A DNA stretch of 64,000 nt, taken from Amphiscolops sp. MND2022. Its lineage: Eukaryota. Location: assembly GCA_964187785.1 (NCBI GenBank), contig OZ076409.1, positions 45,634,001 through 45,698,000 on the forward strand, given 5' to 3'. The first letter of the stretch is position 1. The number at the start of each line of letters is the position of its first letter. The position numbers were made by a program, and so were the translations under genes. Below, piece by piece: positions 1 to 58,532 of this stretch. The notes under the pieces were generated by a model. The model did no database searches and was not told the DNA's origin. It saw only the letters and a list, made by a program, of their open reading frames with translations.

Positions 1-2
1 CC

Positions 3-110
3 GAAATACCTGAAAACGATGCTAGAAATGAAAGTCTGAGCCCTAGAGGAGGGAAATATAATCTCAGGCCTAACCCTAATCCAAACTACTCAGAAGATTT
101 CAGATACTAG
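3..110 (+). CDS. C-terminal end of retrotransposon pol (truncated by window edge)
   Basis: Open frame EIPENDARNESLSPRGGKYNLRPNPNPNYSEDFRY* ending in TAG at 108-110. Confidence 0.6.
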   Translation, partial: EIPENDARNESLSPRGGKYNLRPNPNPNYSEDFRY

Positions 111-338: not shown

Positions 339-1789
339 TTAGTCTTTAGATCCACCAGGAGTAGATTCCACCACTACAGAAGAAGATCTGGATCGGGACC
401 GACTCCTTTCCATGCGTCTGCGCTTGGTATCACTCGGTAGGCGAACAGCAGGAGCATCTCTCACAGAAGGAACGTCAGATGAAGCAACGGTCTGAGCAGC
501 CCCTCCCTCACCGGAGAGAACGGAACGGTGGGACGACATGAGGGACTTATATATAGATGAGCGACCAAAGGTATCTACATAAGCCCAGGGGTCGTAATCA
601 GAGCAGAGTCCAGATTGCCCGAACGAAGCAGATAAAAGAGAGAATTTATCAAGGTTGATGTCAGAACAACAAAGGGCCAGAAGGTCTGGGACCTCAGTTA
701 GATAGCTTTGACAGGGCAAAACCACGTCGGACATTCGGGACTGGAGACCCTTAGTGTCTATCTTCCCCATGACCACTGCGGGGTACTGAGGACTGACAGT
801 GGTCAAACACAGGCAACTCAGTTTAAAAAGGTAGCAAATCTGGCTGTGGGCATGAAAGAAATCGAGCCCCATGAGGAACTCTATAAGGTCTGCAGATTCA
901 TTAACGAGGCTAGGGTCTGAAGAATGGTTGACTCGAAGATAATCCAACAGTGCCACGTATTCGTCCCTGCATGAAGCCTCATTTGGACCAGTTACCCAAG
1001 ACCGCAACTGGAAGGTCGAATACAGGATACTGAAGTGTCGGAGGGCTACCTCAGTGGGACGCTTCAGCATGATGTACGGGTCAAATGCGGCCAGTCCTTT
1101 GATAATGTCAGAGCTGAGCCCAGTATGTCGGAGGACTGCTCCCAATAAGTACTCTATGTACTTCTTGGCACTTGCTACGAAGTCAGACTGCGCTGAGTCG
1201 GCAGTCTTGTCGATGTCTGCTTTATTGGACTTCTTGTTGAAGTGTAACCCAGCGGCCTTCAGGGTACTTGCTGCAGCAACCTTAGTAGTCATTTTGAGCC
1301 TGACTAGGAATTCGTCATCCTTCAGGAATTTCCCGTCCCGAGTTGTGAAATTGAGCAGTAGTAACCAAGCATTCTCAAGAGGAATGGTATCGGGCTCGTA
1401 AACGCGGGAGCAGAGCCGACTGATGTACCTACAAACGTCCCCACACAGGTAAAAGGTGGCGTCTCGTCTTTGTAAGAGATTGACGGTGAAGCTTGAGACA
1501 TCTAAAACGCAAAATAAGAAAGGTCCACTTGGGAACTTCGGACTGAGGTGTGTCTAAGCGTAGTCAACTTACAATCACTGACGAGACGTTGGAAGAATTC
1601 CAGTCGGACGGCAAAAAACTCGTCGGATATCAGGGACCACTCGAAGCTTTGAACCTTGTTATGCACCCCTTGGTTCTCTTGCAATCTGGAATGCATGGTC
1701 AAGAAGCGGAGAACTGACTTCCACCGCCTAACCAGGTCGCGGCACAAATCAGGGAGTTTGTTGACTTCCAGTCTGCATGTGGTAATAGC
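339..1789 (-). CDS. Antisense cargo gene exon 3 (hAT-like C-terminal part; one frameshift near 1550)
   Basis: Acceptor gttatgtttAG|GCT at 1790/1789 is in frame with ORF 1502..1747. A shift in the CACAC run near 1550 joins an open frame (LSPKFPSGPFLFCVLDVSSFTVNLLQRRD...) continuous with ORF 339..1292. Confidence 0.65.
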
Positions 1790-1876
1790 CTAAACATAAC
1801 ATTGCCTCGGAACTAGTAACACAAGCACAACACGTTCCACAGCTCACTCTCCCAGGATCAAAACGGAAATACTAAC

Positions 1877-2362
1877 GCGAGTGAGTTCAGGTGACTCTTG
1901 GACCCAGTCCTCAGTGGTAAATCCGCCCAGAGAGACAAGCAGACACTGGAGAACGGAGAACATGTCTATCCGGCCGAAAACACTGTAGGTATGTTTATGC
2001 ATCAAGTGTTGCAAATCAAGTGCTTCGAAACGGAAACAGCATTGCACCCCTCTTGCATATGAAGGATGTTGATCGATCGTCTTGATGTAGTCGACTGAGC
2101 AGCCCGAACATGCGACGATATCTGGATCGGTAGATACCACTGACAACAAGCGTGACAAGGACCCCAGTTCCCCTGTGAGGTCAGTGGCCGGAAGAGCGCT
2201 TCGGCAAATGAAAACCCTGCAGAGCTTTGATCCTCGCCAAAAGCGTAGGGACATGAGCCTGTTGGTCCCTACATCCTCGAACTCGATGGAGAAGTGTTGT
2301 GCTGAGGCGACTTGTTCTGCGATGTCCTCCATAGCGCAGTTGAAGATATGTTGGAAGACCAC
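1877..2362 (-). CDS. Antisense cargo gene exon 2 (hAT-transposase-like region, ...HFSIEFED...)
   Basis: Acceptor ttctgtttcccattccAG|GTG at 2363/2362 and donor CGC|GTTAGT at 1877/1876. Both junctions are phase 0. Confidence 0.7.
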
Positions 2363-2502
2363 CTGGAATGGGAAACAGAAGAATATAACGCAAGTTTACG
2401 CGTCTTCATCCTAACCTATGCATATAATTACGTCTACATATATGTGTATAGGTATACCTGACCACATAATAAAACACGAGCAAAAGTATGTGCAATACTA
2501 AC

Positions 2503-4512
2503 CGACATTCTCTCTTCGCTCCAATCGAAATCATGGAAGGCAGCTTGATAATTGGTAAAAGCCCCTACTCGGGACCACAGCCTGCGAAGGACAGTCAAAT
2601 CTCCTTGGCTTTGAATGAAATCACCAATCAAGCTAATCTGGGTTTTGGTTCGTGATTGGGGAGTAACGACAGCTACAGTATTGCCTTTGAGGTAATCCTC
2701 ATAAAAGGGAAACCTCTCCCCGACGTCGACAAGTTCGGCATGTATGAACTTTGGGAGCTCTCGGGCTAACTCAGCCTTACTGAGGATCTTTCCATTTCTC
2801 CCTCTGACTCTATGCTGGGTCTTGCCAGTAATGGGGTCGACGCTCTTGAGGTGCTCATAGCGCCACCGCTGGTCTTTTCGGAGATGCCTCTCAGACCTGT
2901 GATGTCTGAGGATCTCATATACCCCCTTTGTCCTTACGGAAAAATTTCTTTTGCACATATGGCACCAGACCATATAGGGGTTGTGCAGGGGGTCTGCGGG
3001 GCCAGAAATGAAAGATCGGACCCACCCAATCTTCGAGAAAAACTCCTCTCGCATGGGCACTCCTCGTCTCGGGCCGATTTTGGGCCTGGTAGTCTTCTTG
3101 CTGCATGCCTTACGTTGAGGGTATCTTGGCGACGTCTCCTCGCGTAATTCGGATAGAGTAGCGTCTAGACTGCTTTGACCAGTGGAGTCAGCACCTTCAT
3201 CGGCCTGGCCTCTTTGGACTGACTGCTGGTTGAGACTGACCTGTTCTCCTGTCGACTTTTTGAAGCTATCAGCAATTAAAGCCATCTCTTCAGCGCTGTC
3301 ACTGTCGCCAAGCAACGGAAATTCTCCTGTCTCAAACAGTGCACTGAAGTCTCCACTACCTTCAGAGTCTACTCCTGGGTCAGTGAGGAAACCCTCAGAA
3401 CTAGATCCTCCTGATTGGTGGGGTCTGGGCATGCTGGGTTGTGTCTTAGACCGGAATTGCCCAGTTCTCGGAGGGGCGGTAGCAGGTTTTCCCCTTACTG
3501 CTCCGATGACCATTTGTTCCATAGTAGTAGCAGTCATGTTTATGGCCTCATCTGTTAGGACCCTGAGGAGATGGTAGACCTGGGGTTCAGTAAAGGCAAC
3601 TGTCCTGTGGCCCACTGGGAAGGTATACGGATCATCAGTGTCGAAATACTGTTTTAGAATTGCCCGGCTCCGTCCTGACAACTCCCGTAATGGTTTCTCC
3701 TGCTGGGAATCCCCAGCCTTTGACGTCCCTGGTAAGTTGACATTTTGGTCATCAATGTCAGTGTCGGTGTCCTTCCCAGATTCAAGTCCTGCACAAAAGG
3801 GGATTGTTCCGTAAAGCAGAGGAAGATCTTCTAACCCTGATGATACCCCAGCAGTGTCCAAGTCACTGGTTGACTCGGCCTCAAGTGGTTTTCCACCCGG
3901 TAATGGGGGCGGTCCGCTAATCGTTGAAGGAGAGTCTTCGCCTAATAAAGAAGTGGACCGTACTTCCTCACCACATTCACCCGAAGATAAATGTAGCTTT
4001 GGGAGGTCGGAAGAGTTGGTCACAGCGACATGCAGCAGGGATTCGAGCTGAGACAAACCTGGCAATTCGCCCGTACTTCGGCCAGGCTCAGTCGGGGTGC
4101 TGGTTTTCCTAGGATCTCGGAGTGGTGGGGTAGCTGGAGGATCGTTATTGGAGCCGAGTCCTAACTCTTCTTCATTCTCTCCTAGTGTGGGTGTCGTTCT
4201 GGCCTGAGATGCTTCCATTCGCTGGACCATTTCTGTTGCGTAGGCGGTGACATCGACGTTGCTGTCAGTGCTAAAAGGGGATTCAGCTACATTCTGGTCC
4301 ATGAAGGTCACCGTCCTCGGAGGAGGAAAAAGGAACAGAGACGGATCTTGTATGGCTCCAGTGGAAGAAGTTGGTGCTGGGTCTGGTAATGAATCAGGTC
4401 GAGTATCAGTGCTCTCTGTAGAGTTGGTTGGTGTCTGAGATTCATCTATATTCTGGTTCTCTAAACAGAAAGAGATGAAATTTAGCGGTGTGCTTCCTTG
4501 AAAGAAATCCAT
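2503..4512 (-). CDS. Antisense cargo gene exon 1: disordered N-terminus plus BED-type zinc finger
   Basis: ORF 2434..4512 contains WCHMCKRNFSVRTKGVYEILRHHRSERH. Donor GTTAGT starts at 2502 after ...EERMS (phase 0). Confidence 0.75.
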
Positions 4513-5617
4513 TTTACCGCGTCAGAAAACTTCCGGAAGTGTTTGAAATTTTGAACAAAGCGTGCAAAGCACGTGTTCTTCAGCCATGGAAACAGGAAGC
4601 ATTTGATGAACGAAACTTAGCCTTGATCAAGTTAAACTAGTTCTAACTATGAAAATCCGAACCAACCTGCATTTGATGACATTCTGCTGGAATGAATGTG
4701 CTCAGAAGGATTCTGTCTAAATTAGGACGAAGAGGATGAGGAAGGAGGCCGGACTCGGACAGGGATGAGAAGAAGCTCGGACGACTTCAATCGGGGGAGA
4801 AGGAACTGTCTGCGACAAGTTGGAGACAAAGAGATGACGCAGTAGAAAGTAAGACGAGAAAAAAATGTGAAGAATTTAAATGGATAACAATCAATTACAA
4901 ATGGAATTGGAATTAAGTAAAAGAATTGAAAAGTTGGAGGTCGTGGCTGAAGATTATTACCAGACTAATATTATGGATTATTTACATATTTATTCTGTAC
5001 ATGGAGTCTGCCAGCAAAATGTACAAAGATTATTTCACCATTTACAACTTATGGAAGTATTGGCCGGTTACGACCGTTTGTCCTATCTCATTTTATCACC
5101 ATTGTTCCGTTGCGGTTGCTGTCCTAATCGGGACTTCCGTTATTATTGTTACTCAAATTGTTATTTCCGCCATTTTGAATTATTTTGATTTATTATTTTC
5201 GCCATTTTTATTATTTAATTTTTCATTTTATCAAAGCTCAACGCTGATTGGATGGAGCCATTACGAGAAATTTTGGTGACGCGTGCCGTTGATTGTTTAC
5301 AAGCGACCCGTTAATTACCCACTTGAGACGGGTGTTGTTGATATTCGTAAGCTGAGAGTCATTCACACCTCTTCTAGTGATGGCACTGATGCGGGGTAAA
5401 CACTATGTTATCAAAGGGAGCCGACAAATTAAGGAATTCCATTGAGGAATGTTTACGACGGATCGGGGCTATCGACCTGAGATTTACCCGCAAATTTGGA
5501 AACTTCGGGAAGAGGCCCGACTCGGCTAAATCCTCAAACTAACAAATTCATTCTGCTTTAAATTTCTGCTTAGTCCAGTTGCTCCTAACCGTTTCGAAAA
5601 TAGCGAAAAAACTTATC

Positions 5618-6403
5618 ATGGACAAATACAACTTGGCTAGAAAGTTGTTCGATCTAGAAGAATACGACTCTGACGATTCAAGAAAATCGGTGATTTACAT
5701 CTCTAGTAGTGAAGAGGAGTCTTCAGACTGGGAGACAGACTGTTCTACCGACACAGAGCAGTTGATAGAGCGGATAGAAAGAGAAGTGACATCTAGCCCT
5801 ATGCTCATTGGGGGAAGAATAATGACGTCGGAAATACCAGATGAAAATATGCCGGTGGCTGGACCCAGCTCATCCGGTGCAAATACTGAGAAGACGCCAA
5901 AAATGGATCACAGGTACTTCGACCTAGAAAGGTGCTACGCTCCCCCCAAGAGGATGGAAAAATCACGGATCGAGCTGTGCAATACAATTTTGCCAATTCT
6001 GGAGTCGCCGATGTCGCCGCCAGACCACGAAAGGGGGCCTAGCCAAGATACCCCCTTGGTCCAGCCATCAATGAGCGAGTTTTATACGTCCTATCATGTC
6101 CAAAATACCAGACCCCTTGACAACTTAAGCAATCAGAGATATACTGGGTGCATGGTATGTGGAAGATCAGTAGACGAAATTAAAGACGAGAAAATCAATT
6201 GGTACATGCAGAGATCAACGCCGCGCGGGGAACCTGAGTTTGTCACCAAATTGAGGAGAGAAGCGTACATAAATGGACTGAATGCCGGCTGTCTACTTTT
6301 CATTGCTCCCGCAGTGTCGCAGGCTGCCGCCTGTGACGGCACATTGATAACGACGTCAGCGCCAAACCAGGAAACCGTCCCAGGTACCCTACCTACATTT
6401 TAA
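5618..6403 (+). CDS. Uncharacterised acidic protein with CxxC motif (about 261 aa) in element 1 3' region/LTR
   Basis: Intact ORF 5579..6403, first ATG 5618 (MDKYNLARK...), containing CMVCGRSVDEIK. Confidence 0.5.
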   Translation: MDKYNLARKLFDLEEYDSDDSRKSVIYISSSEEESSDWETDCSTDTEQLIERIEREVTSSPMLIGGRIMTSEIPDENMPVAGPSSSGANTEKTPKMDHRYFDLERCYAPPKRMEKSRIELCNTILPILESPMSPPDHERGPSQDTPLVQPSMSEFYTSYHVQNTRPLDNLSNQRYTGCMVCGRSVDEIKDEKINWYMQRSTPRGEPEFVTKLRREAYINGLNAGCLLFIAPAVSQAAACDGTLITTSAPNQETVPGTLPTF

Positions 6404-7485
6404 ACTTCCATTTGCTGAAACTTGAATTTATGTGTTAACTATGTTCGTTTTGTTTGATCAAGTACATTTATAGTTGTTTGTAGTATTAGTCTGTTAAAAT
6501 TACGATTTGGAAATATCCAAATCAGGATGTGTTTTGAAGTTTAGCAGGAAGCTTATTGTAATACAAAATGTAAAATCAATTTGAGGCAATAACACACTGT
6601 AAGTAAGTTAATCGCGAGAAGGAAACGTGTTCAAGTGAGAAAACGTCCCTTCTCGGCAACGTAACTTTCAGTACAGCTATTAGCCAATCAGAGTGCTTCT
6701 TTTGTTAATAATGAATGCTTCATTCATGATGGCCGAATAAGGCCTATTGACTGAGCGGTGCTATTTTATGCCAGTCCTTTAGTCAAACAGCCAATTCAGG
6801 CTAATTCAAGCATATTAATACCTTTGCTGTCTAATTGATTCCATACTTACTCGGAGCTACTAGAATAGTGATTTTAATTTAGACAAATAAATTGGTGATG
6901 CTTTGATGCTTATACATTTTCAACTTGAATAAAAGGACAATTCAGGCCCTTTTACCATGTCCTTTAAGTGTGCAGTGCATGATATGGATTTAAGACTGTT
7001 CCGGCCCTGACATGTGAATATTTCCTGATATCGGTGCGATATTAAAATTCCATACATATAGCAGTACATTCCATTCTCAACTTAATCCGCAGTAAACTTG
7101 TGTCGGCACGTGCCTGCACTACCCGCTACAAGAAAATATGTAGGCTAAGGTATTTGTTTGCATCACGGTTGAAGTAAATATTCCCAATGAATTGTTTGAT
7201 GTTGCCGCTTAATATGATGACTTTGAATGCCATTCTGTAAATATTCCCCGGAAATATGTAACCGAAGGGGAATTCCTTTGTGAAATTTGAAGATCATATG
7301 ATCTACTTTCCCTCGCAGGTCATGTAAAGAATGTGATTGTCATTCCCCGAGCAGTATAAATACCACTACCCTGTTGGGGAATTCATTAATCTGTTCTGAT
7401 CTATGCGAGTAAAGTTGTACAAAAGCAGTTAACCTGTTAGTTTTCCGGTTCTGATAATTCAAATATTCAACCCGGTTCAGTCTCA

Positions 7486-8071
7486 ATGCCTACTACCAGA
7501 AAACAAAAGAAAGCAAGGAAATCTAGAGGACTTGAAATTCTCTCAGATATAGAAAACTTGAACGTAATGTTAGGTGAAAATCATTTTAATGAGACAGAAA
7601 AGGACGATAGTTTCGATGGTACTTCCATCAGAAGACAGGAAAGTGTCATCAGTAATAACTTGGAAAATGAAGGAATGAATCCTTACTCTAATCATAGAAA
7701 TTTGGGAGTTGGGACTAGTGCCGATTACGGCCAAAATTCAGCAAGCGCAGATTCCCAAGTTGAGATCAATAGATTGTCGAGTGAATTGAACTCTAGGATA
7801 TCAAGGGAAATGGATGAGATGATGAATAATGTTAGTTCCCAGATCCAGAGGGCCATAAACGATGCCATCAATAACCAAGTTTTGCCTCAAATTCAAAACG
7901 TTATTATGGCCGGCCCGGGACAGGGGACTAGAAGGGGATGGGAGAGGTCCGTAGAGAGACCGGAAGTTTATCCCGAAGTTCCACACAGCTCAAAAGCCAG
8001 AATTAATTCAAACAATGAACAAAGTGAAATCCATCATAGAGGTGAGAAATCACATCATAATGTTCATGACA
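7486..8071 (+). CDS. Probable gag N-terminal segment encoded inside the LTR of element 1 (reads off the LTR end)
   Basis: The MPTTRKQKK... ORF has a coiled-coil-like segment and stays open to the LTR end at 8071. Analogous ORFs occur at 13891 and 31231. Confidence 0.55.
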
Positions 8072-8211: not shown

Positions 8212-8441
8212 GCGCCCATCACTACGAATTTGAATACGGTTTTCAGTTATTCAATGTTTATGTTCTTTTTAATTATAGCAAATACGAAAAAAATGTCCAC
8301 AGAAAGCTGAACATCGTCTTCACATTAATATGAAGACGATGTTCAGTTTTCTGTGGACATTTTTTTCGTATTTGCTATAATTAAAAAGAACATAAACATT
8401 AAATAACTGAAAACCGTAGTCACATTCGTAGTGATGGGTGC
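8212..8441. repeat. Near-perfect foldback inverted repeat (about 110-bp arms)
   Basis: gcgcccatcactacgaat...catcgtcttca is mirrored by tgaagacgatg...attcgtagtgatgggtgc with few mismatches. Confidence 0.9.
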
Positions 8442-9640: not shown

Positions 9641-12600
9641 TCATTTTCTAGATATACTCAGAAACGCTGCTTCCTCGGTTGGTGAACGCATCATCGGTCA
9701 TTTTGCAAGAGTCTGTGGATGAAATCCAATTATTCAATGGAGCAAACTTCGTGGAGTACTCTATTAAATTCGGTTATGACAACTTTATGCGTCTGCTCGG
9801 CCGTACCTTGTCGGATTTCTTCAATGGACTGGATAATCTTCATGCTTACTTCCACCAATCGTACCCCGAGATGAAACGGGTGAGCTTTGTTGTGAGTGAA
9901 GAGAGTCGTAATGGGTTGACGTTACATTACAGGAGCAAACGCAAGGGGTATAAAAACTACGTGCAAGGTCAAATCATTGCAGTTGCCAAACTTCTATTTG
10001 ACAAGGAGGTCAAAATTGAGATCAAAGATGAAAGGTTGGTGGATGGGACAACGTTTGTGGAATTTGACGTCTTCTTCGACAATGCGGAGTATACAAAAAG
10101 GTAAAAATCGATTACGTATCAAAACTGCAAATTACTTTTTTTCCTGCGATCAGGTTAAATATTCTAAGAACCAATATTTAAGACGTCCACGAAGTCTGGA
10201 GGGATTAACCAATTTTTTGAAGGAAGAAAAATCATTCATTGGTCCCGATGTTGTTTCGGTGTCGCAATGCCAATTATAAACATGGACAATTTCAATTACG
10301 TTGGTTCAGTGGGTCAGTTACACACTGCCAATAAGTAGGTCAGAAGTTTCTAAATTTTGGGGTCTTCCATACTTTTTTGGGATTTTCCATACAAGCATAG
10401 TAAACTGAAAGGGACTAAACTTCCTTTATTCAATGGGTCTTTTCATTAGTCCCATATTTTCCGACCATATGGGTATTTGTTTATATTTTCTGACTCAATA
10501 GCACCTTTTAATTTTCCGCCCACATGTAATTATGAGATTACATTATGTCATTATGAGACCTACTTTCATTTGTTTGGGAAGACTTGGATGGGGGGGGTGT
10601 TGTTGGATAAGAAACAGTATTTATCTGAGGGAGGATAAGGCACATGGTCCAAACTTCGTTTTTAGTTCAATAATTCAAGATCGGTATTCCATAAACTACT
10701 GTTTTCGGTTTGATAAAGTTACAACTTCGTATAGACTATTTGTTACAACTTTTCTTGATGTTGCTCACGACAGGGATCAAAATAGATCCTTGCCAATACC
10801 CTGGCTCAAAATACCCAGACCAAAATAACAAGTTATCCAATCATTCCGGTGACTGTGCTCACGACAAGGACCAAAATTAAAATTAGTTAGGCAACTATTA
10901 ATGAGGGCTGCTTTGAAATTATGTTTTGTTAAAATAGGAAACCTGTTGACAGATCAATCAATTGTACTAATTAGAAGCTACAAGGTATTTTATTTGCACG
11001 TGAATGCGTGGATGAAACACACGTGTTCACGTGTGCAACTTGCATTGAATGCAGTTTATACGTACTATGCACGGTAGAGCTCAGTAATGATAACTAATTA
11101 TTTATTGAATCATTGTTTACTTTGACTGGTTTACGATGCTGTGGTATGAATTGGAATTAAAATGAACACTGAGTTTTGAATGCATATAAACATGGTGTAA
11201 GTTAGTCAAAACTTTGACTAACTTCCACTTATTGCAAGTATAGCGATCTGCAATTTACAAAAAGCGGAAGTTAGTCAAAGTTTTGACTGAATTACGAAAA
11301 AGAGTCTTTTTGGACTAACTTCACTTCCACTTTTCACTAACTACGTGTTTTGACTAGCTTACACTATTTTCCATTACGCGCGTTGACACAGCTACACCGT
11401 TGAAGCATAGAGCGTCTTGACTAACTTACGCTGAATGACCATTTTACGGATTACACAGATTACGCTGCTTGACTGAAATGCAGCTTACCGGTACGTGTAT
11501 CGTAATGGAGGAAAATCATGATCTGTGTTGCGTTTTTTTTCCAAATTCTGCCAAATCTCCACGATCTCCATCCACTACTTGACTATTTTTAGTCAGCGCT
11601 TCATGAAGTGAAACACGACTATTATAGTGACTTTTTTAAATCACACTAACTGACCAAAATAGTTCTTGCAAGTTCTACGAAAGTTTATGGTTCCAAATTG
11701 AATCATTTGGCCCAGCAAACTGGACAAAAAAGGTTTCCCTTTTTCCTCGTAACATCAAATACCGGGAGAAACTAAAGGGTTCCCCTTTCAGTTTCTTTCG
11801 GCATTGTGAGACTTTTCTCCCCGGTCACAGCCCGCTCCCGGTCTGGGTTGCCATTGCAGACGAGTGGGGATCGGAAGAGGCCATGGGTGCAGCCTGCGAT
11901 TCCCCATATGGTACTTCAACTACTAATTTGAAAACTTCAAACCACAATCTTAAACAAACTGTGACTAGAAATACGAAAACGCACGTCTAACTTACGTAAA
12001 GTTTGAACGAAAATGAGAACAGAAGCTAAAATGAACCAAAATGATTTCATACACTTCCGGCAGAACGTTTTTATCACGTCGAAATAGAAACATTCGTCAC
12101 CTGAAAACTTAATTAAGAATACGTCTTGAAACAAAGACCATAGACCGATCTAAATGGAAACATATCCAAAATAGTCAATCGGGAAAGAACAACAATCAGA
12201 TCTAAAATAGAAAATACATTGGGATGGCACGCCAAAACATTTACGCCTTTTGTAAGAAACGTAGCTTAGTTGCACTTTGAACAGCAATTAATGTAGAATA
12301 GGACGATCCGCGTCGCTGAGCAAACAAATGTTAAAAGTACATGCAAATATTACTATAATCGTGACGTCAGCATTCCGCCGCTAACTAGTTAACGAGGTAG
12401 AAAGTATTCCAAATCAGACGTCAGTGTGACGTCACAGCTATAACAGCTACCTAGATTTCATTCCAAATTTACGTCAATGCTACGTCCAATACCAGCGGAC
12501 TAAGGCTAATGCTAATACGTACGTCCGCGTTACGTCCAAAATCCATCAAAATAGCTGTTTTAGTCCATTCAGTATAGTGGAATGAGTACCGGTATTATGG

Positions 12601-15600: not shown

Positions 15601-18600
15601 GCTGTTGTAATTGACCCTGAAGCGATAACCAACCAGAAAGCAGTAACTGATGACGCATAAATAAAAGAGAGTACTCGCAAAGAGTACTAAAAAACTTCAG
15701 TAAGGCTTTGATTACCATACTGTGCAGACATCTCCAAAAACAGATTCTCTCAGATTTGAAACATTTCCATTCCTCATCAATTTCATTTAAAATTATTTGA
15801 ACAATCTCAATTCAATTCTTAAAACATTTTTTCAGTCATTCATTTGCGCTATCCGAAGTTAACATCGTCTTTCTGATGCCAACAACGACTACTTCCTACA
15901 GTCGTCAAATCGTCATTGCAACGGAACGAATGAGCAGCACTGTTTCAACTCATGCCTGAGCAAACAACCGATCGATGCCGACAACTAAAGTCCGCAACGG
16001 TATTTCCGAATTCCAATATTCACCATACCTCTACCAGCCTCAAGCGAACGACAACTAGTATCATGAGTCCTCACATAACCAATAACGATACGAAGAAGCA
16101 GTTCAACTTCAACACTTGCGCAAACTTGCAACTTTGAAGCGATGACGACTAATAACCACAGTCGTCACAAACTTCCAATTCCAACCTCAACTCACCATTG
16201 CTACCTCCAAGCGTCAGTGTCTTCAGTCTCAACTCAATATTTCACTCTTTTTAAAAGAAGCAGAGTGTCATGCCCGATTGCATGATTGAAAATGACGACC
16301 ACAATCCCTAGTCGTGACAAACTTAGATAACTCAATTATAATTCAACTAACATCATGAAGCTGCTAAAAACGGAAAACGACTGGCTAAAACGGTGGTCAT
16401 GTCATAAACATTTTTTCATGTAAATCAGTTTAGTGCATATTTTGAAGGTCATGAAGCATCTACTAATACAATCCAGCAGAGAGTACCCATTAATGTAAAG
16501 ACATCAGAATATCATAACGACTGTTGTTGTTAGTCATTGATTATTTTTGAGATGTCATGTAGTAGTACACTATTCACAATCACAGAAGTTTAGTAACCAA
16601 AGTTACCATATGCAGTAGTTTAGTGCTATTAACCCAGTGCTGTGTGATCCGATTGTAATAGCTTCATCTAGTGTGTAGCAGGTGCGAAAGGATTTTGCGC
16701 AGTTGTATGTGGTAGTTAGTGACGACTGCAACACGCAGTCGTAATTGCACTACAATTAACACCTGAAGCGACAACCAACCAGAAAGCAGTAACCAATTAC
16801 GCACAACAAAATGTGAGTACTTGCAAAGACTACTAGTGAACTTCAGTACGATTTTGCTTACCATACTGTGCAGACGTCTCTAACACTAGTTTCTCTCAGA
16901 TTTGACACATTCTCATTCCTCATCAAATTCCTTTAAAAGGGTCAAACAATCTCAATTCAACTCTTAAAACTAAAAAACATTCCTGTATGGTGATCACCAG
17001 ACCTCAGAGTACGAATAGCGTTGAAGTAAATAATTTCAATATGAGTGACAACTAGTATCATGAGTCCTCACATAACCAATAACGATACGAAGAAGCAGTT
17101 CAACTTCAACACTTGCGCAAACTTGCAACTTTGAAGCGATGACGACTAATAACCACAGTCGTCACAAACTTCCAATTCCAACCTCAACTCACCATTGCTA
17201 CCTCCAAGCGTCAGTGTCTTCAGTCTCAACTCAATATTTCACTCTTTTTAAAAGAGGCAGAGTGTCATGCCCGATTGCATGATTGAAAATGACGACCACA
17301 ATCCCTAGTCGTGACAAACTTAGATAACTCAATTATAATTCAACTAACATCATGAAGCTGCTAAAAACGGAAAACGACTGGCTAAAACGGTGGTCATGTC
17401 ATAAACATTTTTTCATGTAAATCAGTTTAGTGCATATTTTGAAGGTCATGAAGCATCTACTAATACAATCCAGCAGAGAGTACCCATTAATGTAAAGACA
17501 TCAGAATATCATAACGACTGTTGTTGTTAGTCATTGATTATTTTTGAGATGTCATGTAGTAGTACACTATTCACAATCACAGAAGTTTAGTAACCAAAGT
17601 TACCATATGCAGTAGTTTAGTGCTATTAACCCAGTGCTGTGTGATCCGATTGTAATAGCTTCATCTAGTGTGTAGCAGGTGCGAAAGGATTTTGCGCAGT
17701 TGTATGTGGTAGTTAGTGACGACTGCAACACGCAGTCGTAATTGCACTACAATTAACACCTGAAGCGACAACCAACCAGAAAGCAGTAACCAATTACGCA
17801 CAACAAAATGTGAGTACTTGCAAAGACTACTAGTGAACTTCAGTACGATTTTGCTTACCATACTGTGCAGACGTCTCTAACACTAGTTTCTCTCAGATTT
17901 GACACATTCTCATTCCTCATCAAATTCCTTTAAAAGGGTCAAACAATCTCAATTCAACTCTTAAAACTAAAAAACGTTCCTGAATGGTGATCACCAGACC
18001 TCAGAGTACGAACAGCGCAGAAGTCAAAATTACCAATATGAAGGATTATTGTGATAACGAAAGCGACGCCAGTTTGCACAAATTTACTCGCACAACTTGA
18101 CCACTGAAAATAGTAATCGCCATTCGAATGAACAAGAAAGGGACCATGAACAGATTCGTAATGAATGCAGATTTGGCGAAACGAACAGACAAATTGGCGA
18201 ACTACCTGGTCTGGTTAGGAGATTAACGGAAAAGTTAAAGAGACCAAAACGAGTCTAATACTCAAACTATCAGATTTATAAATCATTCTGACATGGTGAA
18301 AGGAGTCCCTGGCTTCTCCATTCCAACTCCACAACCAAACCAGCCAAGACTAACGACATTGGAACCCTAACGACATTCCAACCATCGCAGATACAGGACG
18401 TCATTTCAGAAATCCACACGCTGAGAAATACGACGGCAGATGGAATCTCTCAGCCAAAAATCTGCAAACTCAAAAGCAACTCTTCAAAGGACACCGTGAG
18501 AAATTCAATGAATTTGAACATCTACTTTCAAATCACCTACAGCCTTTCCCAATCAACAAACTGACCGAAGAACAGAACCCTAACTATTTCCAAAGCCTCA

Positions 18601-21600
18601 TCCGAGATTAAGCATTCGAGTTTGGCAAACCCTCCGAATCACAACGGAACGACAACCAAAAATGTCCGAGAGGCCTTCAGAAAACGAATACGCCAAAGAT
18701 GACCTCAAGGAAGTATCTAAATTTGAATTTGATCAGATGCGATACAACCCGTCATCTGAGTCGTTCACTGCCTTTCTAACAAGATTCAAACGAACAGCCG
18801 AACAAGCATTTCGCGAGAGAGCTAACGAAATAGCAGAGACGTTCCTCCTTGCCAAATTACAATCCAGCTACAGAACGGCCTAGCCGTAGCAGGCAATTTC
18901 GATGCATCCACTGAAAAAATAAAAGTATTTCTGCAGCGTAGATGCCAATACGCTCAGCTCATTCCGGACAGTGGCATCATGCAGCCCAACAATCAAGTAA
19001 ATCCTCAGACGGAAACAAAACCAGCCCAACCAAATCGAAAGCCAACAGAAAATTGTGGAGCAAAAAAAAGTTCGGTGGTAATTGCCGCCACTGCCAAAAT
19101 TACGGCCACAAACGGGCTGACTGCAGCGAGCGACTCCGACAAGAACCATTAGCGGGCACCAGCAAACAGCAACAAGGCCCAAATCCTGAAAATGACCAGT
19201 GCAAGCCACAATAAAACCCTAAATGTGTTTGCCAAAGTTTCAGATTAATAGACACTCAGCTGGAGATTGGAGATACCGCATACTAGGGGCATCAGCTTAC
19301 CGAATTGTTCCATATAGCAAACAGAGTCAATCGGAGAACAAAGAATTCCGCCGAGATTTCAAACTGGCACAAAATCAACAACGATCGATAAACGAAGTTA
19401 ACATAGAGACACAACGCTCAAGCGGAGAAGACGACCAGAGTGACTGCTTCGACAATGGTAATGAGACGAGGGATGTGGGTCATTCAAAAAACTTCCAAAA
19501 CCACGTCATCCAAAGACTACAAACAAAAGTGTGCTTCAACCAAACCAACTGAAGACTAATAAATACTCCAAGAATCACCTAGGGTTTCGGCAGCATCCCC
19601 AGAAGTTAACCACCACTACTAAAACTAAGAATTTGTAGGTCAAGAAACTATCAGCAGACAACTACCACATTCTATCTATGACTACGTACCCCACACACAA
19701 ACTAAATCAACCTACCTTGGAAAAGATGAACGACAGATAAGCTAACTTGTCAACAGAACGACAACCAATGAACATACCCCCAAAACGATGATGACTCCTC
19801 CAAGCAAACGAACAGCCTAACTCAATGGGTGAAAAGGTGAAGAATACAAACCCAATGAAGTAGAACCCTCCTGAAATCAAACAACTAGGTGCTACCATTC
19901 AACTGGACAAAGTAAGCCGAATGTAGTACGTCCCACTACAATTCAGGAAGTATTAAACCCAAGCTTGCTGGGCACAGGAGCAATCCAAAGTGCCATGTCC
20001 GAAAACGAACTCCGTCGGTTACTAACAGCACACATAGCAGCTCTACTCGGAAAAGACCCAGCTCCTGATATCAAAGTCCATATCGCAAATGGCAGCAACA
20101 AGTCTTCTTCGATTCTTCATTGGTTGGAAAATCGTTGAAGAAACATCCATGATTCTACCAATTGTGGGCAATATCCTCATAGGAAAGTCTTTTTTCGAAA
20201 AGTTTCCAGTTACACTTGAGCTGGACAAAAACATAGTCCGTTTCCCTGACATTTCCTTCAACTGCGACCTACAAATGGGAGATTCAAAACGGAAATAATG
20301 CGAATAGGCTCTTCTCAGAAAACAGTGATTCCACCGTTACAACAACTCTTGGTCCCAGTCGTCGCTGAAAATGACATTGTCACAGTCACAGGTACAACCG
20401 ATACGTTCCCCGCCTTCGAACGCCGCACACGACTCTTTGTTTCACCAGCACTCACAGAAACCAAAAACCAACTCAGTCACGTCCAAATCACAAATCCATT
20501 CGACCACATCATCATCCTACAACCTGGAACCACAGTTGCCGCGCTCAAAGTACTGACTCCGAACTAAGCCAAAACCGTGCAACTAATGACAATCGAACCA
20601 CTCAGTCTCAACACAAAGTACCCAGAAGAAGCAGACCAGACCCTCAACCAGCTGTTCCAGGATCCAGAAAACAAATCACCAAGACGATGGTACCATACGA
20701 CTAAGACGTGTGATAACCCCTCAACACTGAACAAAGTCGAACGACGAAACTACGATGAGATCTTCAAGCTCACGCAAGAGGAGAAGCTGGACCCTACCCA
20801 AGATAACGACCAGCGAAGGCAGTGTTTAGCAAACTTCGAGTGGGCAGACACAATCCTCACAGCCCAGGAACAACAACAAGTGGAAGCACTTTGAAAAATA
20901 TCATTCGGTTAAATATCACTCGATTGTTGCTCGACATCGTCTTGATATTGGTCTCAACACAGAAATTGGGATTAGGTTAACACCCAAGAACGACGACCCT
21001 GTCTACGCCTAAAATATGGCCACCCCTACTAATCGCAAAGACGACCTTTTAGTTGAACTAGCTTTGATTCAGGAATACGGTGTCATCACGACCCTAACGT
21101 ACAGTAAGTCCTCTTCTCCTATCTTTGCGCAACTTAAACCCAGTGGTAAGTTGGTTGATTTGAAAAGAATCAATCACCTTCTCATGAATGAGTACAACAA
21201 GCACAACCATCCATTAAAGACGATAGCAGACGCCGCGCAACACATGGCAGGTAAAAAATTTTTCGTACGCTTGACTGCTCCCAATTTTACCACTGCCTGC
21301 AAATGACAGATGAACAGTCAGTTGAACTACTTGTCTTCAATTTTGGTAGTCGCACATTTGCTTACCTCAGGTTAAACCAAGGTTTCAACAGGTCAGCTTT
21401 CAACAATGCGGTACGGGAGTACCTTGACCCACTAGTTGAAGCTGATAAAGTTGCCCAGTACGCCGATGATATTGGTTTTGCTGCTCACAGTGTTGACGAG
21501 CTAACTGCTATCATTGAAGCGGTTTTTCAGCACATACAGCAAGCCGGACTCAAACTGTGAATGTCTAAATGTGCATTTGGTCATTGTAAAATTGAGTTTT

Positions 21601-24600
21601 TAGGTAGAAGCATCACCGCCAAAGGGGTTGTCTCAATCGATGAAAAGATTGAGAAGTTCCTCAAAAACCCTAACTTACAACCTCTGTTAAATCACTTCAA
21701 CGTTACATTGGATTTGTTCAGTTTTACAGGCGATGCATACCGAATTTAGCAGCAAAACCTGTACCCAGTTTAAACTATTACAAAAGGAAGTAACTTTCAG
21801 CTTGACACAAGTTCACAAAGACTCAGTTTTTGATATCAACCAGAACTTAGCGAAGGCAGCGAAACTTTCGCTCCATTTAATCCTTGACAAGCAGCTAGTT
21901 ATTATGTGTGATGCAAGTGAGCATGCTGCTGGATATGTCCTACTGACCGAGGATTACACGGAAAAAGACAGTTCATCCCTCAAGTCATATGCATTTGTCG
22001 CCTTTGGCTCTCAACGGTTTACTTAAGGGCAAATGTCTCTAACATGGTATGGTAAGGAAGTTTTAGCCATGCACTCTGCTTTTGACGAGTTGGCCCATAT
22101 TTTATGGGAAGTCAAGAAACCAATCATTGTAATGACAGATAACAAACCTTAACCAAGTTCTTCAGTCTAAAAGGAACCCATCTAAGTCGTGGAATTTTTG
22201 CGATCAAACATTGCAGTTCTTTTTTGTTGTGGCACACGTTCCAGAATTCCTGCTGTCGATTACTTGTCACGTTTGAATATTAACCTACAAGACAGGATCC
22301 ACTTCAGGTTGAATACCCAGATCACTATGTACCTTATGGAGATTCACCTGGCAGCCAAGACGCCTACACAAGATGACTGCCAAGAAGACTATGACCCTGA
22401 TGAACCAAAACATCAAGAAAACACAGTTAACAAACCAACCCTTCAGTCACTGCTCAACTCAGTCCCTCAGTTTTCACACTAAACAACAGACGAATTCGAC
22501 ACGAAGTTGACTGAACTACGCAATTACTTTGATCAACATCTGCCCCCTGTTACGCCCTCAATGACATTCACCAGGTTTGTGCAGCCAAATAGAACGACCA
22601 CCCTGATAAGTCAGGTATGCCCGCAAGGGAATTCAAGTCTTGTCGAGGCGCAACTAGTCAACAGTGACGTCCAAAAATTGGTTGAAATCCTAAGCTGTAA
22701 CGAATCACAACCAAACCACGTCAACTTTGAAACTACTTTTTTCCAAAAACTGTTTAAGAACAAAAAATGCCTTTAAGTTGTCTACCGTGATTTGTACCGT
22801 AACCTTTACGAACCAAACTGATCATCCAGAAAATGCTCAGGCCGTAGTCAAGACACACGGTCATGAAAATCCCGGTAGGGACACCCTGGAGCCTCTAAAC
22901 TGTTGGTCGAAGTAAGAAAACAGTACTACGTGCCGAACTTAGCCGTTAACGTCCAAAACTACGTTAGCAACCGTTCTGACTGTATTAAGGCAAACCCGGC
23001 TATCGTCAGAGACCTCACACCCCTCCAGAAGATTTATTACCAAGGTAACTTTGTAATTAGACCAAGTAGGGGCGTTTTCAAACTCAAACGGTTACAAGTT
23101 CGAACTGACTGCTTGCGACTACTTCTGTAGGTACTTTTTTGCAATCCCGATCAAGAAACCAGACCCGAAATCCGTAATCCAAGCTCTAGTCCATGCAGAT
23201 GTTTACACAGCACGTATAGGTGCCCAAAACATTCACAACCGACAAAGGCACTGTCTTCACGTCCCAGATTGTGACTGAAATCATGAATTCGTCTGGCATC
23301 CAAATAGAACACGCAACTGTCAAACACGCCCAGACAAAAGGTTTAATTCAACGAATTCATCAAAAAAATGAAACAAATACTGAAAATAAACGTGCAGCTG
23401 ACACCCCTCAAGGGGTAAAGTCGTCAACATGACACACAACATCGCGCACCATGCGTCGTTGAAATGCTCACCTGCGGAAGTTTTCCACGGACGAGTTCCC
23501 TACAACGCTTTTGACTTTAAAGTCGGAAATCCAATCAAGGTGCGAACACACCAGTAGAACTCACAAAACACCTAGAAACAGTTAATGAAAAGTAAAAACA
23601 AACACAAACTAACTTTCTAGAAGCATTACATAAATACAAGGCTTACTAAGACCGAAAAGCCCAAGCAACTCCTCTGAAAGTAAATGATAACACTTTCCTG
23701 CTAAAACCAAAATTGTCAAATCAGTCAGAGAAAACAACTTTCGCGAGCGAGTTCAAATGGGGGGACTATATAAAGTAGTGAAGGTATTTTCAAGCTCAAA
23801 CTACATCGTCGGAAACGTGGGTAGCTTCAGCCCATTTACCCCGAACACACCGTTGGATGAAATTCTTGACGACCCAAACGAGCACTATGCCGATCCAGAA
23901 GCAGCTGAAGACTAGACGTATTGAACGAAAATCTACCTCCTAGAACCACCGGCAAGCCGCAACTCATCGAACAATACGAGGAAAATGATCCTGATGAAGA
24001 CATTCAAACCGAACCGACCATGGTCTAATCTGCTATGATAACAAAAAACGAACCTCCCCAATACCAATCAAATGACATTACTCTCGTCCACCCAACGCTG
24101 GAATAACTTCCAGAACAGACCAATGAATCGAATAATTCAATTCACACACGAAATAACAATTTCAGGTACAGTCTCCGGAAAAACCCGAAAGCCAAAACTT
24201 ACAACGTCTTCCTAGTACATGAGCTCCAAGTCAAACCAGCTTTACTTAAATTCATGCAAGGCAAGTCAGTCAACTAAAATTATGTAAGAAACCCGTAACT
24301 AGAACTACATGGTAAATGTCGGACATCTACATCACTCATTGGAAACAGATAAAGTTACCTCCATCACCTTGTTCTGATGATTAGTAGGCTTCGCCTCGTA
24401 TCAGAATGAGATTAAAGGACCCAAAAAATTCAGATGAAGGTGTCGTTGTATGTAAAATTCATGAAACCCATGTAACGACTAAATGTCAAGGACGTCAATG
24501 ACACACATCACGAGTGGTGACGTCCCAAGACACACATCAACGATGATGCCGTCATGAATAACGCGTCCTTTCGAAAAAAGTGCATGCAAATAAAAACGAT

Positions 24601-27600
24601 TGACGGTCGTAGCACGACACTCACTTAGTGAACACCCGCTAGAATACACGCCAGCAGAGTATGAAAGAGGAGTTATCTGAAAGGAGTGAAGCAGCTCCAC
24701 CCACTCACCAAAATGTCAAATACGCCACATGTATATTAACTGGACAACGCAGAACGACCCTTGGTGAGTGAGACCTTATTCAACTGGTAGTCGCGAAAGT
24801 GACTACACTACCAGAAACAGAACGACGGCAAAAATTAAACTAGCCGCTTCAACTTTTCAGGTGCAGCTGAAACTTAAACATGCATCCCTAGCAAAAACAA
24901 ATTGTCATAACGTAGTCTTACTTGTAATCTGTTGACAAACTAAACTGCTCACCTAACCGGGAAAACGAGATGAACTCAACTGGCAGAAAATTCAATTATA
25001 AATGCATCCAGCAACAAAACGGCGTAACAAATTGGAAAACATCACCTATGAAACCTAGTAAAAAACAAAAGAGTAGTATCAACAATCAAAAACACGTAAC
25101 AAACGCATGAAATCAACATGTAAAGAATATGCATTACATATTTGTTTTAATTACATTACTAAATTATCTGCAACGATGTTTACCAATTGTCCACTCAAAC
25201 ATCCAACCTCTCACACCACTGCAGAACCTGAGATTTGTCGGGATCGATGCTTTGCTGATTTCAGTCGGGAGACGCCGCCACTCTCAGAGTCTAATTCTGT
25301 ACCTACTTTCTGTTTCCTCTTACTCGTCGCAGTTTTCATACGCTCTGACCCTCGCTTGCCATGATTACGTCCGGCAAGTGACATGCGTGAACTCACGCCA
25401 CGGGCTCGAGGAATCATTTTTGATATACTCCCAATGGCCTCATCAGCCTTTTTACGGGGTTGAACAGGTGACGCAAGACATCTACACCCAGTCGTCAAGT
25501 CTGTCGCCGTTGTTTGCTTCGCAAAGGACTGCGGAGATCCGCCTGCCAAGTTTTTGTTCAAAGGTGTGCACAGACAGCCAATCGATACTCATCAATCGAG
25601 ACGCCTCCTGATGTTCCACTGTCTCGTTTCAACAGTTGGTCCCAAGGTCGGTAACTTTCTGCATCAGATACCCGGGATATTTGCATATCCGTAAAATTGG
25701 CATGGCGTAAGTATCCAGTCATAAGTTTACGCGCATCCCCAGCAAGTCCAAAATTCTCGCAGCTACACACTTGTTTGATACTTGACAACATTTGCCTGCA
25801 AGTCAGGGAAATTGTTCCAACGTCCACGAAGTCGGCCAGATACTCAATTCGGACCGAACCACAATTAACAATCCGAAGGCCGTTGAAGAGTTCACTACAC
25901 CACTGCCAATGCAGGTAACTTAGCCATTAATTGATTTCATCGTCAACAACAGGAATGACTGTTGGTTGGCTCCTCCACCGATACATAAAAAAACTACTCG
26001 CCTCATTGATGTGCTGGATCAATAGGGCACTACAGTCCTCCGGAACCAGAGCCGACTCGGGTGAAAACTAGACAGCAATCGACGAAAAAATCGCCACAAA
26101 ATTGACTAATGACTGACCGTCCATGTAATACTCTGACAACAGGGCTTCGCACAATCCACTCGCGAACAGCTGAACCTCTCGATAAAAGACCAGCGCATCG
26201 TAACGGGACTACTGTGCAAAAAAGGTCTTATACATTTCTTGAGGTAAAGGACCCAAAGCAAAAGCGTGGGAGCTCACACATGCTCAAAGTCAACTTCTGC
26301 AGGCACGTTCGACGATTTTTTCACCAAAACTCGCACACAGCGGATGAAAGAGACAAACTCCGGTTCAAAGTAGATGTCACGGTCGCGCCTCTGTGTGTTT
26401 CCACAAGGAAACTTCGATACGACCAAAACAGAAAGTCACTCTTCTTAAACAATAAGCAACTCAAAAAAGGCACATACCGGAAACAATCAAAATACTCTGA
26501 CATCTTCAAAGTAACAATCCTAAACAGAAGAAAAAATTACTTGAATCAAACAAAGTTACACCAAACAGGTCATACCACAAATACAAAACTAGCATACCAA
26601 CAGTCAGCTGAATATGGCAACTGAGGGCGTGATTGTCGGTCACTGAATATTAGGACGTTCGAACTGGGCACTGAACGTAACTCTATTAACGCTCCACAAC
26701 CTTCCAATCAGAAGAACCTAGCGAGATCGTCTCATCGCTCTACCAACTCGGCACAAATGGCAGCTAACTGTGGTAGAGTCAAGTCGTCGCTCCGTACATA
26801 CTAGAAAAAAAAGAAAAACAACAAATCAATATAATTCAACGCAAATTAGGTAACACAAAAAAGAGTACCAAGACTACGACTTCCAGTTACATAAAAAACA
26901 CAACACCCTAAGGAATCCCCCTGTAAACAAAAACGTTCCAATAGCTGACGTAGCTGTAGCATCAATTCGAACTCCAGTCCATTTCCAAAGTTTGAGAGAC
27001 GATACTTTGTAAGGATCCAGGCCCCCAATCGCTGTTTGAACTCTTACCGTATGACATGCTGCACCCACTGCACATCCAGATAAGGCACGGCCCACAGCCA
27101 TATTGCTCTCTGCCACAACGCTACACAGACTTCCAACTGGATCCAAACACGAGAGCACTGTCACTGCTATGGTTAAAAGTTCGAACTACCATGATTCATA
27201 AACGGTCCAAGTCACCAGAGTCATTGACTTTGTGTCCACATCGCTCACAAGGTGACAGTGAACTTGCCGAAAGTTTCCGTCGAAGAAAACTCGCAGACCA
27301 ACACGATTCCGAGCAACCACCAATTCACACAGTTTCTCGATGACGTACAGATAAATACCGTACAACACCAGAATCTAAACACAGATTATTACCATAAACT
27401 TCACCCAACCAAATCTAACGACCCAAGCAAGAAGTTATCAGCATGACCAGTCACCAAAAAAAGCACAAATACACACATGTAACACTTCGCATGAATCATA
27501 CAGTTGTAGCATGCAATCAAATTACTCACCTGAAATTTGAGCAATGTCAGACTCCTTTCTACGAAAGTTAGCTCGCCGCGCATGCTGACTGACCATCCAT

Positions 27601-57988: not shown

Positions 57989-58532
57989 TTAGTCGGCGCA
58001 TTTTAGTAGAAAATGTGCCCGACTATTACAGTGGGTAGTTTTTTTTTAATAGACGCGTAAGGTCCACTTTTTTGTTCATTTGTTCAACAACTTCAAACCT
58101 CAACAACTTCAAACCCCAACAACTCCAACATCAGAAGCGCGTCCAAAACGAAAAGAAAAAACAAAACAGACATCCAAAGATCCCACCTTAGCCCCACTTT
58201 TTTTCGGCACTATGCGACTTTTTTTTGAAGTTTTTTGGATTGCATCAGAGGGTCAGAGGGCCCCTTCATTTGTTTCGATATTTTGCAACACAATGGATGT
58301 CAAAAAATCGCAAAGGGTCCCCCCTTTTACATTTTTCGGCACTGTGACACTGTTTAAAAATCTCAATAAAAAATTTTTTTTTGAGAAATTTTTCCATGTC
58401 TCCAAAGGGTCCCCCCTTCAATTTTTTAAAATTTTTTTTGCAACCAGCTGGAGTTTCACAAAGCCCGAAGGGTCCCCCTTTTAAATTTTGAGCCTTAGAT
58501 ATGGCGCCGACTTTGGCCGTTCTCGGCTTGTT
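57989..58532 (+). mobile_element. HINE/Helentron-like repeat copy
   Basis: Head ttagtcggcgca...cccgactattacagtg and tail gatatggcgccgactttggccgttctcggcttgtt. Confidence 0.75.

Follow-up and report, generated by a model that had tools for sequence, protein, structure and literature searches.

Antisense genes in LTR retrotransposons

Antisense open reading frames (ORFs) have been described in the Ty3/gypsy retrotransposons of plants, namely gene23 of maize Grande and those of rice RIRE2, Retand (TRP28/PF04195) and PvRetro13, as well as in the fungal element Boty (PMC7264820, PMC11963269). According to these two papers, the plant ORFs lie between pol and the 3' long terminal repeat (LTR) in most copies, and a regulatory role has been proposed for them, although their function is unknown; an own promoter and a nuclear location were shown for the Grande ORF. 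Their origin is given as unknown in the 2020 review (PMC7264820), which reports no similarity to other transposable elements, calls for the study of antisense and spliced transcripts, and treats the origin and function of such accessory ORFs as an open question. The gene presented here lies on the minus strand of a gypsy element in a 64,000-nucleotide stretch of the genome of Amphiscolops sp. MND2022 (the window, G000:C1:45634001-45698000, part of a 1.07-Gb assembly; upstream bases were added to the analysis). It shares with the plant ORFs its antisense orientation and its place between pol and the 3' LTR, but it encodes 1291 amino acids (aa), can be traced by its likeness to a transposase from the same genome whose element has terminal inverted repeats (TIRs), and contains three to four spliceosomal introns with exact losses, whereas the word "intron" does not occur in the text of PMC11963269. 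No match to the PF04195/TRP28 domain was found by Pfam in the antisense protein.

Among retroviruses, HTLV-1 HBZ and related antisense genes encode a nuclear regulator near the 3' LTR (PMC11963269). The retrovirus that encodes HBZ is enveloped, and HBZ itself is a short bZIP protein, driven by an LTR promoter and unrelated to the antisense protein, while no env-like frame was seen in the window element. HBZ is spliced. The plant mobile domain (PMD) occurs in both Gypsy and MULE elements, and its host relatives MAIN and MAIL1 act in silencing (PMC5418596); it is an accessory domain rather than a transposase body, with a reported direction from host or Gypsy to MULE, and no sequence link between it and the antisense protein was found. 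Giant gypsy elements of planarians carry other extra domains (PMC6431247), and no precedent was found in passages of PMC8220671 and PMC12477816. Antisense accessory ORFs are already known in plant gypsy elements, while the spliced, hAT-like form was not found in print in the full-text literature, a scope outside which Repbase Reports, subscription papers and supplements lie. Catalytically dead hAT bodies are kept as nuclear DNA-binding regulators in ZBED, GTF2IRD2, FAM200 and DAYSLEEPER. Compared with these host-domesticated genes, the gene is mobile and present in many copies, and its domesticator would be a transposon of another kind; if this is true, one transposon class has been domesticated by another, mirroring the host domestication of hAT genes. 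The present case combines a probable DNA-transposase origin with an occurrence outside plants, judging by the neighbouring genes; its young copies number in the hundreds, selection on them can be measured, and cassettes have been swapped. We regard the gene as working like a plant antisense ORF or a retroviral antisense regulator, and neither as a TRP28 member nor as a working hAT transposase.

Structure and predicted splicing of the antisense gene

The gene runs from an ATG at 4512 to a stop at 339, and its four exons (Table 1) are joined without internal stop in the window copy. An initial annotation of the locus had proposed a minus-strand gene of about 1300 aa, which agrees with this model, but had divided it into three exons. 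Its two introns (2502-2363 and 1876-1790, both phase 0) were placed correctly, while the frameshift it assumed near 1550 is explained by a third intron (1572-1502), since the break is common to all 30 copies and two sister lineages without this intron read through in the predicted frame. These copies were obtained by a DNA search (40 scored matches of 1701 candidates), from which 30 loci were taken, 17 being 98–100% identical to the window (subfamily A) and 13 being 73–74% identical (subfamily B). All three introns have GT..AG ends in every one of them, and the frame is open from end to end in 21 (14/17 for A, 7/13 for B). Introns 1 and 2 differ in length between the subfamilies, while exons 2 and 3 are constant, and the introns are 65% and 51% identical, respectively, compared to 75–80% for the adjoining exons. 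The ATG at 4512 is common to 11/11 near lineages; an upstream exon joined via the AG at about 4463 was not adopted, considering this conservation and that the candidate GT is not shared.

Comparison between lineages supports the intron positions. The extra intron within exon 3 (Table 1) is present in 13 of 17 matched loci and exactly missing in the remaining four, which group as one clade in a tree built from exons 2 and 4 (support 0.95). An exact absence is also seen for intron 2 in one of nine loci and for intron 3 in two of nine, and at each absence the codons continue across the join predicted for the window, so that splicing of the antisense gene is indirectly shown by sequence comparison. 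Forms without an intron branch from within groups that have it, which is more simply explained by loss. Sense introns are lost from retroelement RNA, while antisense introns survive reverse transcription, and the introns of this gene, being opposite in direction to the genomic RNA, would not be spliced out of it. Exact intron loss is the outcome of recombination with reverse-transcribed spliced mRNA, and the losses seen here suggest that spliced RNA has met reverse transcriptase (RT). Three exact absences in an element that is itself reverse-transcribed bear on how introns are lost.

The disordered N-terminus noted initially is reflected in the composition of aa 1-470, of which S, T, P, G, E and D make up 55%. 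It is followed by the CxxC...H...H zinc finger, whose C517, H538 and H543 are invariant wherever the 15 gene models used for the zinc-finger and catalytic column counts have residues; the densest invariant residues are found in the finger and the next 45 residues. The finger itself thus stands as annotated, while its assignment to zf-BED was not reproduced by Pfam. The FSIEFED strand is present at aa 694-700 as had been described, the letters of the NLLQ helix word are not conserved, and a basic KRRR is found at aa 1264, at the C-terminus. In several of the automatic gene models, junctions are wrong or could not be resolved, and these models served for column counts only; L063 was left out of the exon-2 alignment and L067 out of the exon-1 alignment (internal stops), and the exon-4 alignment comprises 107 of the 150 homologues listed by the protein search described below.

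The antisense gene as a fixed part of the element

A search with exon 4 gave 131 scored matches of 7273 candidates (65–100% identity), and further lineages were found using two distant homologues as queries. Nine mid-distance and nine distant copies, chosen to cover a range of frame lengths and identities, were inspected. In all 18, as in the window element and the copies checked from subfamilies A and B, the gene lies antisense between pol and the LTR, followed by the sense frame ORF3, and none lies outside a gypsy element. Both LTRs are whole and 98–100% identical in 17 of the 18, the 3' LTR of the remaining copy, a distant one, being only partly covered. Identity to the window falls to 30% for exon 4 in these diverged copies, with at least 66% for pol. 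Neither TIRs nor a target-site duplication (TSD) of 5–8 bp was found around the gene, and the number of 12-mers forming inverted repeats between its flanks is what chance would give (19, compared to 9–43 in 20 shuffles). The antisense gene is a fixed, stable part of the gypsy element, as the initial annotation had held. It had also placed the gene between pol and a putative polypurine tract (PPT) with the LTR; the position stands, but no purine tract is present, and the 3' LTR starts only at 6315, 1.8 kb past the start of the gene.

A profile search of 1.84 billion proteins gave 558 matches at E ≤ 0.001. The 150 of them that were listed are exon-sized (85–418 aa), and the ten looked up are all without name. 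One match, P0082, shows no more than 31% identity to any sequence scored in the present genome, and the family therefore probably extends to other genomes. These matches also serve as a warning for annotation, as spliced antisense genes are fragmented into unnamed exon pieces in protein databases. In L099-L100 (G000:C2:84435910-84453909), 1.9 kb of the spacer separating the antisense gene from ORF3 is duplicated in tandem, and L114 has a reversed ORF3-like frame just past its 3' LTR (L114:17399-18000), probably from a neighbouring element or a solo LTR of the same clade.

Selection and cassette exchange

The comparison of substitutions across copies, which had been proposed together with the initial annotation, shows that the antisense gene is under strong purifying selection. 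Between subfamilies A and B, the proportion of synonymous differences (pS) over aa 471-1291 is 0.68–0.83, at or near saturation, while the non-synonymous distance (dN) is 0.07–0.13; for the disordered N-terminus, dN is 0.27–0.30. Within subfamilies, variants found in at least two copies have a ratio of non-synonymous to synonymous proportions (pN/pS) of 0.07 for aa 471-1291 and 0.21–0.22 for aa 1-470, compared to 0.33–0.56 for singleton variants overall and 0.33–0.36 for the singletons set against the ratio of 0.07. Since the ratio is low for shared variants and higher for singletons, selection acts through transposition: the copies which gave offspring kept the protein intact, from which we infer that the gene helps its own element.

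The antisense gene can be far more diverged than the element carrying it. The RT-RNase H region of lineages K, M and N is 96–98% identical to that of the window element, while their exon 4 is 55% identical; in the same elements, the integrase is 92–99% identical. At the DNA level, LTR, gag, pol and ORF3 of the pair B2/N are 92–98% identical, but the antisense gene is 71% identical or cannot be aligned. The same holds for the pairs K/M (backbone 84–97%, antisense gene 62–70%) and C/F (84–96% and 68–69%, respectively). These alignments indicate that the gene is a cassette exchanged as a block between near-identical gag-pol backbones. The pattern could reflect either favoured diversity of cassettes or a backbone homogenised by recombination, with diverged cassettes moving only as blocks. 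B2 and N have a common LTR with different cassettes, which counts against a strict LTR sequence specificity of the protein.

Probable relation to hAT transposases

A hAT origin of the antisense protein is likely, because a profile match, a structural alignment and language-model neighbours, three modest lines of evidence, point to the same family. The family profile matches aa 29-225 of the ORF of a TIR element from the same genome with 10.4 bits, which was reached by none of 1000 shuffles (maximum 4.2) and none of 94 control pieces (maximum 3.0). The alignment is collinear over 267 columns, with an E of 0.009 for the zinc-finger match, and the regions follow the same order from finger to C-terminus. 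This comparator element has 12-bp TIRs, and a flank duplication of 6 bp in three of four two-ended copies and of 5 bp in the fourth; the hAT6 group is defined by 6-bp TSDs (PMC12730594), and the comparator presumably belongs to it. Its protein has no Pfam match. The comparator family (L164-L175, G000:C7:5483499-5484573 and other copies) has subterminal TCAGGGAA repeats, and the five copies inspected are all internally deleted, at differing places. In the structural comparison, residues 1-273 of the exon-4 model (predicted local distance difference test, pLDDT, 82) were aligned collinearly with residues 368-609 of Hermes over 166 residues by a structural aligner, with a weak Z; Hermes ranked 22 of 48,161 and was the sole row of more than 90 residues among the matches listed. 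A first fold from nine sequences (pLDDT 40.5) had been set aside. Lastly, the ESM neighbours include a cluster with PF05699 in 68% of its members (score 0.90) and, at row 30 of the list, a FAM200-GTF2IRD2-like cluster.

The similarities shared with hAT transposases (Hermes, hAT6) are the N-terminal CxxC..H..H finger, the order of the regions, the likeness in the insertion domain to the element with 6-bp TSDs and the weak collinear structural match to Hermes. Unlike them, the antisense gene has no TIRs or TSD, no DDE triad and no CxxH, its protein has an acidic extension of 470 aa and continues for some 60 residues beyond the hAT-like end, and it moves only by retrotransposition. The catalytic positions were placed by eye and by means of the comparator motif, F-T-L-S-F-D-E being set against F-S-I-E-F-E-D. 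The position of the first Asp is occupied by E, A or V in 9, 5 and 1 of the 15 models, respectively, no model has an Asp at aa 752-760, and E[RS]xFS is found in none of the 79 exon-4 homologues which span the last helix. The columns set against CxxH after the fifth strand read Q-[SC]-[CP]-[FP]-R-F, with no His at aa 774-785, save for one lineage at 774. Given a hAT origin, the protein is very likely catalytically dead, as had been suspected. Considering that the DDE positions are lost while the finger and the scaffold are conserved, the parts that were kept would be the DNA-binding end and the scaffold.

Proposed role and alternative explanations

We propose that an ancestor of the gypsy clade took up a hAT-type transposase gene, probably hAT6-like, in reverse orientation, in the interval from pol to the 3' LTR. 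Transposon ends and catalytic residues would then have been lost and the zinc finger and helical scaffold retained, while the captured gene gained its long, acidic and disordered N-terminus. Its transcription would start from a separate antisense promoter, located between 4513 and 5617 and perhaps serving ORF3 as well, and the product, with its finger, acidic N-terminal tail and basic cluster, is presumably a nuclear protein which binds DNA or chromatin, and may act as a helper keeping its own element expressed or unsilenced. That the gene encodes an accessory protein of hAT descent, catalytically dead, which serves its element by acting on DNA or chromatin, is reasonably probable; among the possible functions, we give a regulatory or anti-silencing role an even chance.

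A number of results weigh against the hAT origin. Pfam found neither zf-BED nor Dimer_Tnp_hAT in the antisense protein, and PF05699 in none of 113 family members; a hAT C-terminal profile gave no signal in the protein, and for the C-terminal likeness to the hAT dimerisation domain proposed initially, the ESM cluster with PF05699 is a pointer that neither Pfam nor the profile repeats. PDB sequence searches with three alignments found no relative, Foldseek against the PDB and viral models, plus a VIA re-check of Foldseek's 650 chains, gave nothing significant, and profile tests against the Ac-type hATs of the genome and a second group, which we take to be CGGBP1-like, were negative both locally and globally. 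A motif pattern for another hAT group had no match, the ESM Atlas gave no usable match to named clusters with exon 2, and word-index searches found no longer relatives, which is weak evidence. The failure of all library searches, the weak Z for Hermes, the negative tests against two other hAT groups and the presence of introns, as in host genes, would be expected if this genuine antisense accessory gene had been captured as a host zinc-finger gene or were a lineage-specific helical protein, with a hAT likeness due to chance. We nevertheless consider this rather unlikely: the three lines, although weak, are independent and agree both on the family and on the expected part of it, the order of domains from finger to C-terminus is that of the comparator, and none of the 18 diverged copies inspected lay outside a gypsy element. 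That an independent hAT transposon is nested in one retrotransposon copy and passively carried is hardly credible, although the presumed donor class exists in the genome; it was rejected as the gene is in the same place in all lineages inspected, with flank inverted repeats at chance level, and is under strong purifying selection without catalytic residues.

The remaining alternatives concern what the protein does. It could still be an enzyme, namely a nuclease or recombinase whose active site has been rewired, involved for instance in processing of element DNA or in plus-strand priming without a PPT. Exon 2 does contain invariant acidic and basic residues (E697, R719, R724, E735, D767, R781, H792 and D803), and the clade of the window has no purine tract yet was recently copied, but each of the three canonical positions either varies or is not acidic, and the gene is also found in lineages which retain a G-rich tract, making such an enzyme very improbable. 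With the same hAT origin, the protein might instead act at the particle or integration step, in nuclear entry or in target-site choice with the pre-integration complex, an idea also raised for the plant antisense ORFs (PMC7264820). Selection via transposing copies is expected if the product prefers its own element, and both the basic cluster at the C-terminus and the contact between spliced RNA and RT suggested by the exact intron losses would fit, but the divergence of exon 4 next to a near-identical integrase shows no sign of tight co-evolution. A long acidic N-terminus is also better suited to transcription or chromatin roles, and we find a particle or integration role quite improbable. The chromatin reading can itself be extended to a class II transposase domesticated across the clade as an exchangeable cassette, of which many deeply diverged versions would be shuffled among near-identical gag-pol backbones because the protein serves as a factor for anti-silencing or self-recognition in an arms race with the host, its spliced mRNA being occasionally reverse-transcribed and leading to repeated exact intron loss. 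This is possible but somewhat doubtful; if true, intron loss mediated by RT would have been put to a natural test in this clade, replicated many times.

Anatomy of the gypsy element

The antisense gene is held by a complete gypsy element of 16,050 bp (window and upstream bases), in the order 5' LTR, gag, pol, antisense gene, ORF3 and 3' LTR. The LTRs are of 1757 bp, and the 5-bp duplication GGTGG is found at both ends of the element; a 5-bp target duplication is present in five of six elements checked. Protease (PR), RT, RNase H and integrase are in gypsy order according to Pfam matches, and the C-terminus of pol ends at 110, as annotated initially. TGGTGACAGGAG follows the 5' LTR in the lineages shown, as a putative tRNA primer-binding site. 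Gag is a 585-aa frame which starts about 630 nt inside the LTR (window 7441-8071 and the upstream LTR) and crosses the primer-binding site.

Table 1 Features of the gypsy element and its antisense gene (window positions unless stated otherwise)
Feature	Position	Strand	Remark
5' LTR	G000:C1:45626022-45627780		99.7% identical to 3' LTR
pol 3' end (PR, RT, RNase H, integrase)	1..110	+	1738-aa frame, start 5.1 kb upstream of the window
Exon 4 (aa 905-1291)	339..1501	-	All-helical; matches insertion and C-terminal part of hAT-like transposase
Intron 3, 71 nt, phase 1 (GTAAGT..TTTAG)	1502..1572	-	Exactly missing in two sister lineages
Exon 3, 217 nt	1573..1789	-	Most other lineages: extra intron at 1655/1654, exactly missing in the clade of the window
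Intron 2, 87 nt, phase 0 (GTTAGT..TTTAG)	1790..1876	-	Exactly missing in one sister lineage
Exon 2 (aa 671-832)	1877..2362	-	FSIEFED strand; region read by eye as RNase H-like core
Intron 1, 140 nt, phase 0 (GTTAGT..TCCAG)	2363..2502	-	GT..AG in 30/30 copies
Exon 1 (aa 1-670)	2503..4512	-	First 470 aa acidic and of low complexity, followed by the zinc finger and a conserved helical part
CxxC...H...H zinc finger (aa 517-543)	2884..2964	-	Conserved in gene models
Conserved non-coding block	4893..5215	.	Between the divergent antisense gene and ORF3
ORF3, 261-aa accessory ORF	5618..6403	+	Purifying selection; crosses usual PPT position into LTR
PPT position	6300..6314	+	Not purine-rich in the clade of the window; short G run in distant lineages
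3' LTR (TG..CA)	6315..8071	+	99.7% identical to 5' LTR

The last 29 codons of ORF3 are within the LTR. Compared with ten near lineages, its pS is 0.75–0.81 and its pN 0.16–0.27, and it is still 29–34% identical in distant lineages. No Pfam match was found for ORF3, which has an acidic N-terminus, one CxxC and a conserved VIYISS followed by an acidic run, presumably resembling a SUMO-interacting motif. The block upstream of it (4893-5215) is 86% identical between subfamilies A and B, with pS close to pN and broken frames in the three frames tested, and small frames at 4722-5279 were rejected as coding; it is a candidate promoter shared by the antisense gene and ORF3. The 15 nt before the 3' LTR of the window element contain 5 purines, and a purine tract is missing in 11 of 16 elements including this one (5–7 purines in 15 nt), while the other five have 8–10, with a G run. 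In the tract-less elements, the site is ORF3 coding sequence ending in CAG or CTG; these elements were still copied recently (LTR pairs 98–100% identical).

Other features of the window

The window contains three other gypsy elements. The largest (15830-31481) is decayed; its LTRs of about 1.4 kb are 97–98% alike, one LTR is in part duplicated in tandem, pol and the 3' LTR are about 6 kb apart, and its relatives are few and diverged; no homology to the antisense gene was found in it by tblastn or hidden Markov model. A small element at 38278-44121 (+) has LTRs of 190 bp (99.5% identical) and encodes gag and pol in one frame of 1770 aa with the RT motif WLDD, while another decayed one at 58728-63999 (-) has 149-bp repeats that are 93% alike. 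A perfectly abutting inverted repeat with 115-nt arms, 95% complementary, is found at 8212-8441, 140 nt past the LTR. The frame at 9652-10104 (+) is probably a host exon, which we take to resemble the haem-NO-binding domain of soluble guanylate cyclases and which points to an animal-like host. A dispersed repeat family (11578-11816, 46822-48172, 52350-52732 and 58267-58528) has subterminal-like short repeats in both orientations and is probably a non-autonomous DNA element.

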